Part shown: positions 5,954 to 36,082 of the stretch, in pieces
Layout of the letters: every line of letters starts with the position of its first letter
Position numbering within the stretch: the stretch's first letter is position 1
Assembly (NCBI GenBank): GCA_021513695.1
Contig: CP084166.1
Coordinates: forward strand, 224,001-288,000
Direction of reading: 5' to 3'
DNA length: 64,000 bases
Origin: Candidatus Heimdallarchaeum aukensis
Lineage (GTDB): Archaea; Asgardarchaeota; Heimdallarchaeia; Heimdallarchaeales; Heimdallarchaeaceae
Notes under the pieces: generated by a model
The model's input: only the letters and a program-made list of their open reading frames with translations
Databases searched by the model: none
Told to the model about the DNA's origin: nothing
Position numbers and translations under genes: made by a program

Positions 5954-7330
5954 TTACCCTGAAACTGTAATATTGGCTATTGAAACAGCAGGAGCATCTA
6001 AAGGCCAAGGTGATTGTAGTACATCATCACCAATTGAAATAAAGTTTTCAAAGACTTGGTAATAGTTTCCTGCAATGCTTACAGATCTTAAAGGTAATGT
6101 ACGTTCTCCTTTTTCAATTAGAAAAGCGTTGTTTGAAGTTATACTGAAATCTCCTGTAATTACATTTGCTGTGAATAGTCCTATTGGTGTCTCTTCAATA
6201 TAGATTCCTTTATCTATTTCTGCTATCTGTTCTTCGAGGTTTTTCTTTACTGGTTCAACTACGAGTTTTCTAGGAGAAACACTTGGGATATTTTCGAAAG
6301 CAATTCCTCCCATCATACCTCCTCTGCTTGCATTAGCTGTTGTTTCTGTATTTGCAGCTTTAGCATACATTCTATCAAAGAGGAAAGTTTTCAAAATTCC
6401 TTTTTCGATGATTGAAGTTTTACCTACTGGGCTTCCTTCTCCGTCAATTGCTACTGTACTTTGACTTTCAGGTATTTGTCCGTCGTCAATTAAGTTGAAC
6501 CTTTCATCAGCAATCTTTTTACCTAGCTTGTCTCCTAAAGGATTCCTTTTTTCCACATATGCAGCTCCAGAGAGTGATTGCATAAATGGAACAGTAAGAA
6601 ATGCTGAAGAAGTATAAGGATGAAGTACAATAGGAAGTTTTTCACTCACATTAAAGGGTTTTGAACCTAAATGCTGAAAACCTTTTTCTACTGCTTTTTG
6701 ACCTAGTTCACTAATATCTTCATTCTTTCTACTAAGGACAAATTCAGATGCAGTTTTCCTATCTCCTTCTTTCATTACAACTGCATACGCTGATCCTCCA
6801 AAGACAGTAGATAAAGTAGAAACTAAACATCCTTCAGTAGTTCCAATAGCGTATCCTCTTACTACTTTTTCGACGTTTACAGATACACCTATGATTCTTT
6901 GATCATTTTTATCAACATTGTAAAGTAGTTCTGAAATTTTGTCTGCTAATTTCTCAGGAGTTAAATGTAAAACTTCATGGTCGAGAATACCATCTTTAGA
7001 TTGTTTACTTTCACTTACAAAACTTTCAAAAAGAGGATTTTTTGGGCTAGCTTTAGCAATAGCATAAGCTTTTCTTAAAGCTTCCTTGATTGATTTTTCA
7101 GAAAAACCAGTACAAGAGGAGAAACCTAGTTGTTTTCCTATTGCAACTCGAATTCCTACCCCCTGAACTACACCATCTCTACTGTCTACTTTACCTTTGT
7201 TTTCGCTTAAACTGGTCTCTAACGAATTATAAACAAAAGCTTCAGCAGACGGAATGTTAAGATCTCTAGCATATTTAATCGTAGTATCGGCAATATTCAA
7301 TATTTTTTCTCGTATTTCATTCAGTTCCAT
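5954..7330 (-). CDS. pmbA: PmbA/TldE family metalloprotease partner
   Basis: 458 aa of the PmbA_TldD family type, lacking HExxxH. Its start overlaps the tldD stop by 1 nt (ATGA). Confidence 0.85.
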   Translation of the reverse strand: MELNEIREKILNIADTTIKYARDLNIPSAEAFVYNSLETSLSENKGKVDSRDGVVQGVGIRVAIGKQLGFSSCTGFSEKSIKEALRKAYAIAKASPKNPLFESFVSESKQSKDGILDHEVLHLTPEKLADKISELLYNVDKNDQRIIGVSVNVEKVVRGYAIGTTEGCLVSTLSTVFGGSAYAVVMKEGDRKTASEFVLSRKNEDISELGQKAVEKGFQHLGSKPFNVSEKLPIVLHPYTSSAFLTVPFMQSLSGAAYVEKRNPLGDKLGKKIADERFNLIDDGQIPESQSTVAIDGEGSPVGKTSIIEKGILKTFLFDRMYAKAANTETTANASRGGMMGGIAFENIPSVSPRKLVVEPVKKNLEEQIAEIDKGIYIEETPIGLFTANVITGDFSITSNNAFLIEKGERTLPLRSVSIAGNYYQVFENFISIGDDVLQSPWPLDAPAVSIANITVSG

Positions 7331-17153: not shown

Positions 17154-18062
17154 TTAAGTTGGAATTTTATCAATTATTTTTTTCATTGTTTGTGTAAATT
17201 CGTATACACCAGGTTTGATATGAAAGTAATCATATGTTGGAACAGTTAATGTTTTACAGTTTGGAATAATCTCTTCTAATTTCTTTGACTCTTGATAATT
17301 GTGATATTTATCATGTTCTGTTAATATTAAGAAAACAGGGCTTTTAATACCTTTAAAGTCGTTTGTAGCATCCCACTTCCTAACTTGATTACAGTTTTTC
17401 CACTTTTCGATATTGATTTTTTCAACTCTCTGGTAATAAACTTCTTTCTGAAAACCTTCAGACACTTTGTTCCTTAAATACATTCTACCTATTTTTTTGC
17501 CTAACCAATTTACAATATTTTTAGGAAGAATTAGTGCTAATGTGATCAAAAAACCAGGCGCTCTAGGTTTTCTAGCAGGACTTGCAAAAAAGCAACACTT
17601 TGGCTCAATTTTTTCTTGAGTTATACAATGAGCAATGTATGTTGCTCCTACACTCGAACCGAAAAATACTATGTTCTTTTCTTCAATTTGGTAATGTTTA
17701 ATGATCTCTGCTATATCTTTTGCCATTCTCTGAACAGAACATTCTGAATCTTTTTGTAAATTGATAGTGTCTTTATCTCTAGGATCAATAACAAGTAAGT
17801 TGTATACTTCAGCTATAGCATCCCAAAGATCTGTCCATGTTTCTTTTTCAGAACCAAAACCTTGAATAAAGACAAAAGTGGTTCTATTAGTATTCTTATT
17901 TTTATTAGAATAAATGCAATAAATATCTAGGTTGTCAGAAACAGTAACATATTCTTTTTTTGCTTCATTAATGAATTTCCAATCGAACTTGTATTTTGAT
18001 TCAAAGTCGTTTTTAGGCATAAAAATGATTGTGAAAAACTTGTATAAAAAGTAATCCATCAT
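17154..18062 (-). CDS. alpha/beta hydrolase
   Basis: Nucleophile elbow FFGSSVGA (GxSxG) and a C-terminal IKSPVFLILTEHD. It is a distant paralog of 21917..22798. Confidence 0.7.
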   Translation of the reverse strand: MMDYFLYKFFTIIFMPKNDFESKYKFDWKFINEAKKEYVTVSDNLDIYCIYSNKNKNTNRTTFVFIQGFGSEKETWTDLWDAIAEVYNLLVIDPRDKDTINLQKDSECSVQRMAKDIAEIIKHYQIEEKNIVFFGSSVGATYIAHCITQEKIEPKCCFFASPARKPRAPGFLITLALILPKNIVNWLGKKIGRMYLRNKVSEGFQKEVYYQRVEKINIEKWKNCNQVRKWDATNDFKGIKSPVFLILTEHDKYHNYQESKKLEEIIPNCKTLTVPTYDYFHIKPGVYEFTQTMKKIIDKIPT

Positions 18063-18127: not shown

Positions 18128-18219
18128 TCATAGGTTAATTTCAGTTTTATTCATTGTTAATCACATACCCTCGTAACCCACTTTCTATATTTTTGTTACC
18201 TATTTTTCTTGAGTAAACA
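18128..18219 (-). mobile_element. truncated left-end remnant of the IS481-family element found intact at 37789..38799
   Basis: The reverse complement is collinear, without indels, with IS positions 37789 to about 37880. It shares TGTTTACTC, then a 35-nt block at 33/35 identity (ggtaacaaa.a.atagaaagtgggttacgagggta), and an ATG at the same +65 offset. Similarity decays about 25 nt into the ORF. Confidence 0.7.
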
Positions 18220-23590: not shown

Positions 23591-23760
23591 GGACTCTACC
23601 CAACCAGTCAACAAACATATCGAAAGTTGTGAGGACTGGGTTAAGAGAACATGAAAGACACAGTCTTAAGTGAGTTCTCTAAAGGGTTCATCTCCTGATC
23701 CCGGGCACTCATCACTCCCACATGGAAGACCGGGTGTCGTAGGAATGAAACCTACGTCTT
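23591..23760. other. GC-rich structured island (candidate ncRNA or mobile-element scar)
   Basis: Local GC is clearly above the flanks. A nested hairpin spans 23645-23679 (gagaac/gttctc enclosing aagac-aca-gtctt, with AUGA / AAGUGA internal loops). A second hairpin spans 23738-23756 (cgtagg-aatgaaa-cctacg). There is no convincing ORF. Confidence 0.25.
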
Positions 23761-24043
23761 TAAGCATATAGATCAAAACACTAGATAAATGAGAATTGAA
23801 TATATAAAGACTGCAGAAAAGTTGTGACACTTCCCAATATCGTGTATTCTTTATTAATCCAAATGTGCTTCTGGTTGTTCTTGGTCTAATAACTCCACAA
23901 ACTAAAAATTTAGTTCTTTACGTAAAAAAGTATTTCATCAAAACTAAACTTCAGAGAGATGCTAAAATAATGTGGAATGGTTAAATTATAAAGAACTTTC
24001 CAGATCCTAACTCTTTTTTTCTTTTAAAAAAATGAGAAAAAGA

Positions 24044-33237: not shown

Positions 33238-33519
33238 TTGATAAGAATGGATTTAGTAGTTAAGGATCCTGAAAAAATAGTAGAAATCGCAAAAGTACTC
33301 TCAAGTACAACAAGATTCAAAATAATTCACTTATTGAAAGACAAAGAAATGACAATTAGTGATCTCGCAGATGAAATTCGTCAAACACAAGCAAATACAT
33401 CAGCTCAAATAAAAATGATAGAAAATGTAGGGTTGATGGAAAATAAGTATGAGCCTGGAGATCATGGAGTGAAAAAACTTTGTAAAACAAAGGTCAAAAG
33501 AATAATAATTGAGATATAG
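33238..33519 (+). CDS. ArsR/SmtB-type winged-helix regulator
   Basis: RFKIIHLLKDKEMTISDLADEIRQTQANTSAQIKMIENVGLM. The ATG at 33247 is more plausible than the TTG at 33238. Confidence 0.7.
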   Translation: MIRMDLVVKDPEKIVEIAKVLSSTTRFKIIHLLKDKEMTISDLADEIRQTQANTSAQIKMIENVGLMENKYEPGDHGVKKLCKTKVKRIIIEI

Positions 33520-33552: not shown

Positions 33553-33747
33553 TTATTTCTTTTCTAAATATATTACTTTTTCAAACATATTTGTAAGTGG
33601 TAATAAAACAAAAAGATTACTCTCTTCAGGTAAATTGTCGATAGAAGTGTAGAGTATAAAAGGCGAGTCTTCAGATTCTCTAATCATAATCTTAAAGAAA
33701 GGATTCAGAGAAACAATTTTTTTAATGTCTTCAATAGATATGGTCAT
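33553..33747 (-). CDS. hypothetical small protein
   Basis: 64-aa ORF with no recognisable motif. Confidence 0.3.
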   Translation of the reverse strand: MTISIEDIKKIVSLNPFFKIMIRESEDSPFILYTSIDNLPEESNLFVLLPLTNMFEKVIYLEKK

Positions 33748-33759
33748 GATTTACTTTTT

Positions 33760-34050
33760 TACGTAAAGTTTTTCACACTCTGTCTTGCAAGAGAGAAAAC
33801 TAAAGGAAGTTTAATCTCTTGAACTCAACCAAGCCATACAATGCCATGAAGGGGTTGAGACAGACATCATACACGAATCGTGGGAATCATAAAGAAGAAA
33901 AGAACTAAAAACTCTTTTCTTCACTCCACGAGAGACAAAAAAGAAAGAATTACTCCTATAATAGAGAAGGAGTTAAGTTCTTTTTTGTCTACTGGGGCTG
34001 CAACCAATGGCTGAGCCCTCGGCAAACAGTGAAATGGGAAGAACTGAACC
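33760..34050 (-). ncRNA. candidate omega (re)RNA of the TnpB element
   Basis: It sits where omega RNAs are expected, overlapping the tnpB 3' end and the ~240-nt ORF-free tail. A perfect 10-bp hairpin spans 33894-33922 (gaagaaaaga/tcttttcttc). A 7-bp hairpin spans 33824-33859 (ctcaacc/ggttgag). The palindromes tcttgcaaga and tttacgtaaa lie near the distal end. Confidence 0.4.
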
Positions 34051-35443
34051 TTTGACCAGTGAGGTAATCAGTGATAGTTGTTCCTCGAGGACGAAAAAGA
34101 GCACCAAGGAACTTACGAGCGATATTCATTGCTCCTGTGAGGTCAGAGTGGAAAGTGTAATTGCAAGAGGGGCAATGGACTAAACCTCTAACAGGACGGA
34201 CAACTTTCCTTCCACAACGAGTACAGTGAGAGGATGTCCCTCTTTCCTCTACGGTTAATATTCGATGAGGGTCAAAACCTCTTAATATCAATGCTCGACG
34301 GAGAAGAGTAAGAACTAGAGAAAAGTTCCACTGATGAAGTTTCCTGCGAAACTTACGCGCACTGTTCCCTTTTCCTTTATCTTTTCTCACATTTTTGGGG
34401 TAACCTACGACGACGAAAAGGTCATACCTTCGAGCATAGGTCTCTATCGTCTGCACAACCTCACTTATAAATTGGTGAATATAGGACAGTTTAACGTTTC
34501 TATATCTTCTTCGGAGAAGACTAAGAAAACGATAAACTTGGTGTTTTTTACCCGACTGGTCGTTTAAAGCTGCTTTCCTCTGAAGACGGGAAAGTTTGAG
34601 TTTATATCTATGATTGATTTTATTCCATTGTTTGGTATACCAGAATTTTATTTCTTCACTTGTTAATTTCTTTTTAGGGGTTAGTAACACTCCTGCAGCA
34701 GGAATGTTTATCCCTAGATCTATTCCCAGCACAGCTGGAGGAAGAGAAGAAGAACTTTTTTTTTTAGGAGGATAAAAAGAAGGAGGAGGAAGAACTCTTA
34801 GTTGGAAATACACCCACCACTCATGTGTAGAACGTTTATATCTTAGTTCTAAACTTTTTATTCGTCCTTTCTTTAATTCCTTCTGGTGGAAAGTGCTCAT
34901 CTCTAAAGGCAACCATAACTTCTGATGATATGGGGTATTTCTTTTCCACGTATCTAACGAGTCTCTTATCCCCACCCACCAACGAGCGAGAGTGTTATTC
35001 TTCTCTTTAGGTAAATGGACGAGAACGAACCTCTTTGCATTAATTAGTTGTCTTCTTGCTCTCTTTATTGGAGGACGAGTATTATTAGGTCTATACCCTT
35101 GTTCATATAATTGTACGGCTATATCTCTACACTCTTGAAATTCATTGTGGGAACAATAAGGGAACATTTTCTTCAGATCGTGAGGGACATTCTTTCTTCT
35201 CTCTTCTTCTTTAACTTTTGAAGTAGTTAGCGTCAACTCATCTAGTTTTCCTCTATGCACTCTTATTTTCCCTTTTTTAGTTTTAGTACATATTTTTCTT
35301 CTGTTGTGGTGTATAATTCTCACATACTTTTCTATTATCCTCGTATCTCTTCCCGTTATTCTCCTTAACCTTTCCTTCTTCCTCGTCGTCAATACCTCCT
35401 TCTTTATTCTCACTTTCAAGGTTTTGACGACGTCCTTCACCAT
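33989..35443 (-). CDS. tnpB: TnpB-like RNA-guided nuclease (IS605 OrfB family)
   Basis: RuvC-I LGIDLGINIPAAG, zinc finger CTRCGRKV..CPSCNYTFH and RuvC-III HSDLTGAMNIARKF. 484 aa with a K/R-rich N-terminus. The RuvC-II position reads VVVGYPKNV rather than the expected xxxEDL. Confidence 0.85.
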   Translation of the reverse strand: MVKDVVKTLKVRIKKEVLTTRKKERLRRITGRDTRIIEKYVRIIHHNRRKICTKTKKGKIRVHRGKLDELTLTTSKVKEEERRKNVPHDLKKMFPYCSHNEFQECRDIAVQLYEQGYRPNNTRPPIKRARRQLINAKRFVLVHLPKEKNNTLARWWVGIRDSLDTWKRNTPYHQKLWLPLEMSTFHQKELKKGRIKSLELRYKRSTHEWWVYFQLRVLPPPSFYPPKKKSSSSLPPAVLGIDLGINIPAAGVLLTPKKKLTSEEIKFWYTKQWNKINHRYKLKLSRLQRKAALNDQSGKKHQVYRFLSLLRRRYRNVKLSYIHQFISEVVQTIETYARRYDLFVVVGYPKNVRKDKGKGNSARKFRRKLHQWNFSLVLTLLRRALILRGFDPHRILTVEERGTSSHCTRCGRKVVRPVRGLVHCPSCNYTFHSDLTGAMNIARKFLGALFRPRGTTITDYLTGQRFSSSHFTVCRGLSHWLQPQ

Positions 35444-35569
35444 CTTTCTCTTTTCTCCTTCTTTCCTCTTTTTTTTGTTTCTTCTTCTCTTTTTTATTCT
35501 ACTTTTTTCCCTATAAAAACCCCTCTCCTTCCTCTCCTCTCCTTTCTTTTTTCTCTCTACATTTTCCTC
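35444..35569 (+). repeat. 126-bp polypyrimidine (+) / polypurine (-) tract immediately upstream of tnpB
   Basis: By my count 115 of 126 positions on the + strand are C or T. The tract contains ccctataaaaa (a TATA-like element on the minus strand). Confidence 0.8.
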
Positions 35570-35581
35570 AATAATTGTAAA

Positions 35582-36082
35582 TTACGTAAAAAATAGACGC
35601 ATGCTAGAAGTTAATTTCTTTAGAGATTCAAGAGGTATAGCTGAAAGATTATTTAGAATTGTAAACTCTAAATTCATTTTTGTTAATATTTGACTAAAAG
35701 CAGTTATCCTCTTCCTAGCATTAGACAGATGATCTCGTATGGTTGAAGGGCTATTTTGAGTAAACTTTGCTATTTCTTCTGATTTGAAATCTAAAATATC
35801 GTGAAGATAAAAACAAAGAAATTGTTTGTCAGATAAAACGGAAGAAACAGGATTAATATCAGAAAAATAACCAAGGTTTACTAATTTAGAAACAGTTTCT
35901 AAAAAATCTAATTCTTGAACTTCTTCTTTAATACTATCTTTCCTTTTAAAAGAAAAAAGAATAACTAAGGAAGCTCTTCTAATTTCCATGTTAATGAAGA
36001 GTTTTAAATGTTTAATACTTTCAGGAATTTTGGGTAAAAATTCTTTATGATCTTCATTTTTTACTAGAATCGAAAATTTCAT
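35582..36082 (-). CDS. sigma-70 region-4-like HTH protein
   Basis: LSDKQFLCFYLHDILDFKSEEIAKFTQNSPSTIRDHLSNARKRI fits the r4/LuxR-type HTH pattern. 166 aa. Confidence 0.45.
   Translation of the reverse strand: MKFSILVKNEDHKEFLPKIPESIKHLKLFINMEIRRASLVILFSFKRKDSIKEEVQELDFLETVSKLVNLGYFSDINPVSSVLSDKQFLCFYLHDILDFKSEEIAKFTQNSPSTIRDHLSNARKRITAFSQILTKMNLEFTILNNLSAIPLESLKKLTSSMRLFFT

Follow-up and report, generated by a model that had tools for sequence, protein, structure and literature searches.

We propose that positions 34018-33746 on the minus strand of the window (the whole 64,000-nucleotide stretch of DNA that was analysed, from Candidatus Heimdallarchaeum aukensis) are the scaffold of an omega RNA (reRNA) belonging to an Asgard-archaeal TnpB transposon, a reading we consider quite probable. 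The preliminary description of this DNA had already suggested such a scaffold, and the suggestion is supported by an intact TnpB on the same strand, an end at the right boundary of the element, covarying helices and a predicted helix joining a conserved core to the terminus. As expected of an omega RNA, tnpB lies directly upstream on the same strand, with a first hairpin (H0) in its last codons; the scaffold ends at the right end of the element with variable sequence beyond it, as seen in 27 right ends and an empty-site orthologue; and its secondary structure covaries, on few independent events. The 3' end of TnpB genes is commonly no more than 250 bp from the transposon end (PMC10691335), and in archaea non-coding RNAs are known from the 3' termini of tnpB genes of the IS1341 type (PMC4615843).

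The RNA family is new, in that it is absent from Rfam, and its kind is well known. Apart from the inverted repeats at the ends of the element, which are the sole unusual feature, a scaffold downstream of a tnpB gene is to be expected. The results provide a complete, testable parts list for a TnpB system of Heimdallarchaeia, which of all archaea stand closest to eukaryotes. It comprises the limits of the element, a scaffold model, a predicted pseudoknot, a predicted guide start and a candidate TAM. Such a list would permit the direct reconstitution of an Asgard RNA-guided nuclease. In the literature we found no paper describing this RNA family, and the main text of the Wu 2022 genome paper mentions neither TnpB nor IS200/IS605.

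The TnpB element, its limits and the interrupted host gene

The window's TnpB matches the Pfam family Cas12f1-like_TNB (E = 1.6e-9) and scores 87.7 bits with the NCBIfam model guided_TnpB, under the curated cut-off of 100 bits. Its RuvC triad (D242, E400, D434) and CxxC...CxxC zinc finger show no variation across 22 TnpB relatives. When a profile of these 22 relatives is compared with the PDB, the matches are Cas12f/TnpB-like chains, the top one being 8hr5 (E = 2e-15), and the chains of ISDra2 TnpB and Fanzor are absent from the matches at E < 0.01. All of the closest relatives (80-92% identity) come from Heimdallarchaeaceae, and the window's TnpB is a divergent Asgard TnpB lineage. The Lys/Arg-rich N-terminal third of the protein (residues 1-160; window 34960-35443, minus strand) is well conserved across Asgard relatives and has no Pfam match. 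The G+C content of the element is 0.35-0.46 vs about 0.25 in its surroundings. An ORF next to the element is 99% identical to a protein of the Ca. H. aukensis genome. The coordinates of the features are collected in Table 1, where the TATA-like box is a putative promoter.

Table 1. Features of the TnpB element and its host gene, by position in the window
Feature	Position	Strand	Remarks
HTH gene, 5' part	35604-36082	minus	3' part at 33553-33745; split by the element
Left junction	35577-35603	minus	flank-derived CAT (35603-35601, predicted TAM), then left terminal inverted repeat
TATA-like box TTTTTATA	35512-35519	minus	5' of tnpB; kept in the alignments of clades A and B
tnpB	33989-35443	minus	intact 484-aa ORF; identified by Pfam and catalytic residues
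Candidate omega RNA scaffold	33746-34018	minus	about 273 nt, from hairpin H0 through the last scaffold base; 5' extent predicted
Hairpin H0	33995-34018	minus	ten pairs; covers tnpB codons G-L-S-H-W-L-Q-P
Stem H1	33931-33993	minus	12-13 bp, spans the stop codon; apical hairpin actcct/aggagt variable
Hairpin H2	33894-33922	minus	perfect 10-bp stem GAAGAAAAGA/TCTTTTCTTC at 33894-33903 and 33913-33922
Conserved core UUUAUGAUUCCC	33882-33893	minus	invariant in clade A; hexamer AUGAUU at 33890-33885
Conserved box 2 GUGUAUGAU	33866-33874	minus	GAGAUGA in other clades
Outer stem GUCU/AGAC	33865-33862 and 33785-33782	minus	encloses H3 and H4
Hairpin H3	33824-33859	minus	7-bp stem; loop with conserved motif UGUAUG
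Hairpin H4	33788-33821	minus	7-bp stem 33821-33788
Right terminal inverted repeat	33746-33775	minus	final six bases AAUCAU (33751-33746) complement the core hexamer
Predicted guide GACCAUAUCUAUUGAAGACA	33726-33745	minus	host-gene sequence directly outside the right end; flanks differ in every copy

The genome of Ca. H. endolithica PR6 contains 12 full and 2 partial copies of the element, and extra copies come from metagenomes and other MAGs. The ends were mapped with 27 right ends, 20 left ends and one empty-site orthologue, the initial alignment having 15 copies. On the tnpB strand, the sequence shared by the copies runs from CATG (35603-35600) to ...AAAAAGTAAATCAT, the final base of which is 33746, and the flanks outside these points are unrelated. 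The right terminus, AAAAGTAAATCAT, is invariant in 18 copies and homology ceases immediately after it. The comparison of other copies, proposed in the preliminary description as the way to define the right-end boundary, has thus fixed it at 33746, together with the empty-site orthologue. This corrects the distal end near 33760, at the palindrome tttacgtaaa, that the same description had assumed: the true end is 14 nt past 33760 and 12 nt past the palindrome. A boundary at TTAC within the palindrome can be ruled out, as all copies share the 12 further bases. No second full copy of the element was found within the 64-kb window, and a scan of viral contigs with the 14-mer of the right end gave AT-rich unspecific matches only.

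The element interrupts a host gene. ORF 35582-36082 and ORF 33553-33747 fuse in frame to a sigma-70-region-4-type HTH protein of 224 amino acids, which aligns end to end with the uninterrupted 223-aa orthologue P0122, without a gap at the junction. The empty-site DNA, found in L095, has one ATG at the insertion site. The inserted unit in Ca. H. aukensis is therefore 1855 bp (a 1.86-kb element), because the alignment of copies, the ungapped orthologue and the single ATG of the empty site agree on it. The upstream HTH fragment acquires six codons encoded by the element (MRLFFT) and then a stop. An ArsR-type gene (33238-33519, plus strand) adjoins the split HTH gene and also neighbours the intact orthologue in L095.

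Several models of the insertion were considered. The right end reads ...CATG, from which came the idea of insertion at start codons; it was ruled out, as most copies have no ORF beginning there. An element running from ATG to CAT without a duplication is ruled out by the empty site, which retains its ATG. A duplication of 4 bp (CATG) or 2 bp (AT) is disfavoured by the outer C of the left end, which varies in 0 of 20 copies, vs the G at the mirror position of the right end, which varies in 9 of 27 (Fisher p = 0.006). There is no clear target-site duplication at the element junctions, and the insertion may have produced a duplication of 3 bp.

Structure and conservation of the candidate scaffold

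From the tnpB stop codon (33989-33991) it is 243 nt to the end of the element at 33746. The view that this tail is free of ORFs holds, since only trivial ORFs of 44 aa touch it; the tail is 235-257 nt long in 18 copies and these lengths differ by non-multiples of three, so that no conserved ORF is present. All of the structures that were noticed at first sight exist in the sequence: the perfect 10-bp stem of H2, the 7-bp stem ctcaacc/ggttgag of H3 (33824-33830 and 33853-33859) and the palindromes tcttgcaaga (33783-33792) and tttacgtaaa (33758-33767). The stem actcct/aggagt exists too, about 7 nt away from where it had been placed (33952-33957 and 33968-33973). The list was incomplete, with additional stems at 33993-33931 and 33821-33788 and a hairpin at 34018-33995. 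The last of these lies within the coding sequence, so the 5' part of the scaffold is not confined to the tail past the tnpB stop, as the preliminary description had it.

The minus strand of 33740-34060 has a minimum free energy of -100.1 kcal/mol vs -69.0 +/- 5.0 for shuffled sequences (z = -6.2), and 0 of 100 dinucleotide shuffles fold as well. The plus strand of the same region reaches z = -5.5; both strands fold well and energy alone therefore cannot pick the strand. Rfam has nothing at gathering score over the 64-kb window, the scaffold region is without a match even at E <= 10, save chance-level matches elsewhere, and ARAGORN found no tRNA. A short G+C-rich stretch in an AT-rich intergenic region of the window (23690-23760, cccgggcactcatcactcccacatggaagaccgggtgtcgtagg...) likewise has no Rfam or tRNA match.

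The covariation analysis used 15 copies of clade A, aligned from the last 75 nt of tnpB through the right end (alignment A1). RNAalifold predicts 72 pairs on these copies, 5 of them with compensatory changes. For testing we specified 61 pairs in 8 helices. Standard pairing is found in 99.0% of the 914 cells (61 pairs in 15 copies) vs 44-55% when the partners are slid by 1-3 columns. Changes on both sides of a pair occur in 28 cells vs 11.3 +/- 2.8 in shuffles, and 0 of 500 shuffles reach 28, a comparison in which kinship alone can beat the shuffles without any structure. The compensatory pairs are located in H0, H2, H3 (two pairs) and H4; clade A consists of two subfamilies and the five pairs represent few independent events. 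In H0, pair 51/70 changes from A-U to G-C in 4 copies, by way of one synonymous Gly change and one Pro-to-Ser change, which points to selection on the RNA. At pair 162/185 of H2, 11 copies have A-U and 4 have G-C; at pair 273/303 of H4 the numbers are 8 and 7. The stem of H1 is paired in 98.9% of cells, and its tip differs in sequence and length among copies. There are also many G-U pairs (for example 56/64, 153/330 and 86/137), which would be A-C mismatches on the plus strand, so that the RNA reads in the direction of tnpB. In clade A, the only clade in which it could be traced, GUGGAGU (33929-33923) and ACUUUAC (33769-33763) form another long-range pairing, which survives by changes to G-U on one side. 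The tail has a mean pairwise identity of 0.83, higher than that of third codon positions (0.78) or of the 5' leader (0.71). Related elements, in which conservation or covariation of the structures was to be looked for, therefore keep the helices and show compensatory changes.

A covariance model, also proposed as a check in the preliminary description, gave a divided answer. The model of clade A (R1) recovers 33746-33894 on the minus strand at 177 bits and a relative of 53% identity (L017) at E = 1e-4, but clades B and C are not significant, the best hit being L020 at E = 0.18. The window also contains two decayed right-end-like pieces with core and terminus, at 23820-23938 (+) and 17967-18059 (+), which R1 scores at 13.5 and 20.6 bits and whose local alignment scores are about 5 sd over shuffles. 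One of them contains CTTTACGTAAAAAAGTATTTCAT, matching in 21 of 23 bases; the other contains GTGAAAAACTTGTATAAAAAGTAATCCAT and overlaps the beginning of the opposite-strand ORF 17154-18062. These pieces may be remnants of older insertions.

More distant relatives are found in clades B and B2 (TnpB identity 42-45%) and clade C (35-39%), all of them solo genes of Heimdall-type genomes. We compared the clades by folds of each sequence, because the MAFFT alignment across clades (A4) put the stems out of register. H0, core, box 2, H3 and terminus are modules shared across clades at 35-45% protein identity, with entirely different stem sequences. The common layout begins with a hairpin over the conserved ...LSxWL codons, followed by the core UWAUGAKUCCC and the box GAGAUGA or GUAUGA, and continues with a hairpin that has UGUAUG or UGUGUG in its loop and with the terminus AAnAAMUCAU. 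Clades B and C have UAAUGAGUCCC or UAAUGAGUGUC as the core, and the outer stem of H0 differs clade by clade. For H3, the stems of the clades are CUCAACC/GGUUGAG, CUUAAUCC/GGAUUAAG, CACCUCC/GGAGGUG, UUCACUCU/AGAGUGAA and GAGCAGA/UCUGUUC. Clade B has an equivalent of H2 after GGAGUGA. The tails of distant relatives fold with z = -3.0, -5.8 and -1.8, the last being the weakly structured tail of L099. The clade-C element in L099 has the right-end terminus GAGAATAACTCAT twice (at 6842 and 7024), the second 182 nt downstream, which suggests a leftover or an alternative right end.

In every complete sequence examined, the last six bases of the scaffold exactly complement the core hexamer. Clade A combines the core AUGAUU with the terminus AAUCAU, and clades B, B2 and C combine AUGAGU with ACUCAU, a two-sided change that counts as a single event (clade A vs the rest). 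The L017 type has AUGCGU as its core hexamer, for which the predicted terminus is ACGCAU. The omega RNA of ISDra2 has a pseudoknot in which nt -6..-2 pair with nt -102..-106 (PMC10097598), and the predicted helix of positions -6..-1 with about -145..-140 in the window's scaffold resembles this contact.

Alternative readings, predicted guide and TAM

The best surviving alternative is that the tail is a structured 3' UTR or a separate regulatory small RNA without a guide role, acting on the stability of the tnpB mRNA, on the control of tnpB or on other genes. RNAs over the 3' ends of archaeal tnpB genes were initially described as regulatory ncRNAs (PMC4615843), and the guide role is here predicted from sequence alone. 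We nevertheless think this alternative improbable, because the structure stops exactly at the transposon boundary, its final bases form a predicted pseudoknot-like helix typical of TnpB/Cas12 guide RNAs and the TnpB retains its catalytic residues. The 3'-end tnpB RNAs of Halobacterium, regulatory ncRNAs by their description, are presumably omega RNAs themselves. The RNAs of PMC4615843 sit at the 3' end of tnpB, where omega RNAs are also located.

A second alternative is that the tail acts as DNA, as a right end bound by the transposase with helices that are hairpins of single-stranded DNA, as in IS200/IS605. The last 24-31 nt are truly an inverted copy of the left end and hence must act as DNA, and the good folding of both strands agrees with such a role. 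But the left end mirrors no more than about 30 nt and the remaining 240 nt or so have no counterpart there, while short subterminal hairpins suffice for the known ends of IS200/IS605 (PMC3119063; Meers preprint). The structure moreover begins within the coding sequence and is found solely downstream of tnpB, like that of omega RNAs, and the G-U pairs in the helices favour one RNA strand. As an account of the whole tail we consider this reading very unlikely. Finally, long A-rich and U-rich runs pair easily and the tail of L099 is weakly structured, but the idea that the stems are a product of chance in purine/pyrimidine-skewed AT-rich sequence can practically be dismissed, given that no dinucleotide shuffle folds as well, that 15 copies retain 99% of the pairs and show compensatory changes and that the same modules recur at 35-45% protein identity.

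The scaffold reading has points against it as well. Two U tracts, UUUUUU at 33942-33937 and UUUUU near 33907, lie within the scaffold, and such tracts could terminate archaeal RNA polymerase. The length of about 270 nt, the small number of independent covariation events and the lack of significant hits of the clade-A model in clades B and C also count against it.

If the region is an omega RNA scaffold, its guide is predicted to start at 33745, by analogy with the TnpB paradigm (PMC8612924, PMC10097598). CAT is invariant both in the left flank (20/20 copies) and at the right end (27/27). The base 5' of the left CAT is T in none of the 20 copies (p = 1.6e-4), whereas the CAT of the right end follows a T; the position just past that end is occupied by G in 18 of 27 copies. 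The fixed CAT and the consistent absence of T before it on the left point to a predicted TAM ending in [A/C/G]CAT, that is, not-T and then CAT. In Geobacillus elements one or two bases distinguish the TAM from the TEM (Meers preprint), and by comparison with these the CAT at both ends, the variable base after the right end and the single ATG of the empty site would fit a TAM/TEM scheme, though a 3-bp duplication is also conceivable.

In the mechanism that we propose, the RNA would derive from the tnpB transcript, with the TATA-like box at 35519-35512, or from an internal start, and its scaffold would be bound by TnpB. The AAUCAU terminus would pair with the core AUGAUU about 140 nt upstream, forming a pseudoknot-like helix beside the guide as in ISDra2, and the 16-20 nt past 33746 (GACCAUAUCUAUUGAAGACA) would act as the guide. 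The target would be an unoccupied HTH gene, where the left-flank motif and the right flank are directly joined, so that ...[not T]CAT is followed by the match to the guide. The complex would cut this unoccupied copy and the element would be copied back by repair. The difference of one base between the T-CAT of the right end and the CAT of the left flanks, which is never preceded by T, may spare the occupied site. Self-targeting would be avoided only if the TAM excludes T, because the right end carries TCAT beside the guide match.

Terminal inverted repeats and relation to known systems

The elements of clades A and B have terminal inverted repeats of 24-31 bp with ends in CATG, which are seen in the window (35577-35603 and 33746-33775), in L001-L012 and in L096-L098. 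The right terminus is an inverted copy of the left end. The sequence of the repeat is CATGMTTYTAYTTTTTRCG (and its complement); subfamily 2 has CATGATTTACTTTTTGCG...CGCAAAAAGTAAATCATG, extending to about 31 nt, and clade B has CATGGTTGTTTTTCCCCACTTT and AAAGTGGGGAAAATAACTCATG. The left end carries just one arm of the right-end hairpin and has no hairpin of its own. IS605-type elements are described as being without ITRs (PMC3119063). IS200/IS605 elements are recognised by the lack of terminal inverted repeats and by a subterminal hairpin at each end, both on the same strand, a description that does not apply to the window's element.

The junction rule is strand-asymmetric, with CAT on the tnpB strand at both ends and a variable next base at the right end. 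The fixed outer C of the left end (0/20 varying) vs the varying mirror G of the right end (9/27) suggests that each end is cleaved just after CAT on a single strand. The inverted-repeat ends raise the question which enzyme moves these elements. No transposase gene is present within the element, and no transposase gene, such as that of the Y1 HUH TnpA that mobilises IS200/IS605 elements, and no Cas1 gene is adjacent in the 8 relatives whose neighbours were read. Altae-Tran et al. 2023 describe TnpBs with DDE transposases and symmetrical ends, Asgard groups of TnpB linked to Cas1, and solo TnpBs moved in trans (PMC10691335).

We tentatively raise the possibility, itself rather doubtful, that the Asgard elements are a separate family of TnpB transposons outside IS200/IS605 and IS607. 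Such a family would be marked by inverted repeats of 24-31 bp and by strand-specific cutting after CAT at either end, and its members would be moved in trans by a transposase of the Asgard Cas1-like, serine or DDE type. If this were true, the inverted repeat would contain the 3' end of the omega RNA, an arrangement shared with eukaryotic Fanzor elements, and the archaea nearest to eukaryotes would provide a prokaryotic case in which TnpB guide RNAs have adapted to transposons with inverted repeats. Fanzor elements have symmetrical inverted-repeat ends and a guide-RNA gene that enters the right repeat. TnpB genes in DDE (IS630-type) transposons resemble the window's element in the same way, with symmetrical inverted-repeat ends (PMC10691335) and a guide-RNA gene running into the right repeat. 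Unlike both, the window's element has no transposase gene, an asymmetric CAT junction rule and no clear target-site duplication, and Fanzor proteins are not among the PDB matches of its TnpB profile.

Among the closest known systems is ISDra2, an IS200/IS605 element of Deinococcus radiodurans. Its omega RNA is likewise encoded on the strand of tnpB, includes the end of that gene and has several stems (PMC8612924, PMC10097598). It ends at the right transposon end and takes its guide from the flank, as predicted here, and the bases preceding the guide are paired with a segment far upstream, again a prediction in our case. A short fixed motif in the left flank (the TAM, a predicted one in the window) and a similar motif at the right end are common to both. 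The ISDra2 scaffold is 116 nt long, vs roughly twice that, about 270 nt with a predicted 5' limit, in the window. The window's scaffold differs from known omega RNAs in having no sequence similarity to them and no Rfam match, and its TnpB differs from those of IS200/IS605 in being a divergent Asgard lineage with an NCBIfam score under the cut-off. The 24-31-bp terminal inverted repeats and the missing left-end hairpin set the element itself apart from ISDra2 and IS200/IS605. Among archaea, the sotRNAs of IS1341-type tnpB genes of Halobacterium are likewise sense-overlapping RNAs at the 3' end of a solo tnpB (PMC4615843). They were found by transcript mapping and are unrelated in sequence, whereas the window's RNA is predicted from its DNA.

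Cas1H-Asgard-1 and -2 (PMC10691335) are Asgard-restricted TnpB lineages too, with loci flanked by repeats and scaffolds that end in ...CAU or ...CAY ahead of a variable stretch. The window's clade differs in that GTTCACTCA does not follow the variable stretch, which is ordinary flanking DNA, and in that no Cas1 is adjacent in the 8 relatives read. The published GTTCACTCA motif (PMC10691335) is carried by Thorarchaeota-type relatives of about 35% identity (L101, L222-L228), whose tails have GGAACAY, then about 20 nt and then GTTCACTCA, inside a called ORF in one relative. In three of these relatives tnpB is divergently paired, at a distance of 250 bp, with an ORF of >1400-1600 aa that has no Pfam match.

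The window also contains a separate, G+C-richer insertion sequence at 37774-38814 with an rve-type (DDE) integrase (37854-38792, plus strand). The two copies of a 15-nt direct repeat, TGTTTATCTCACGAC, flank it (37774-37788 and 38800-38814), and 89 nt of its left part have a 76% match, in inverted orientation, at 18131-18219.
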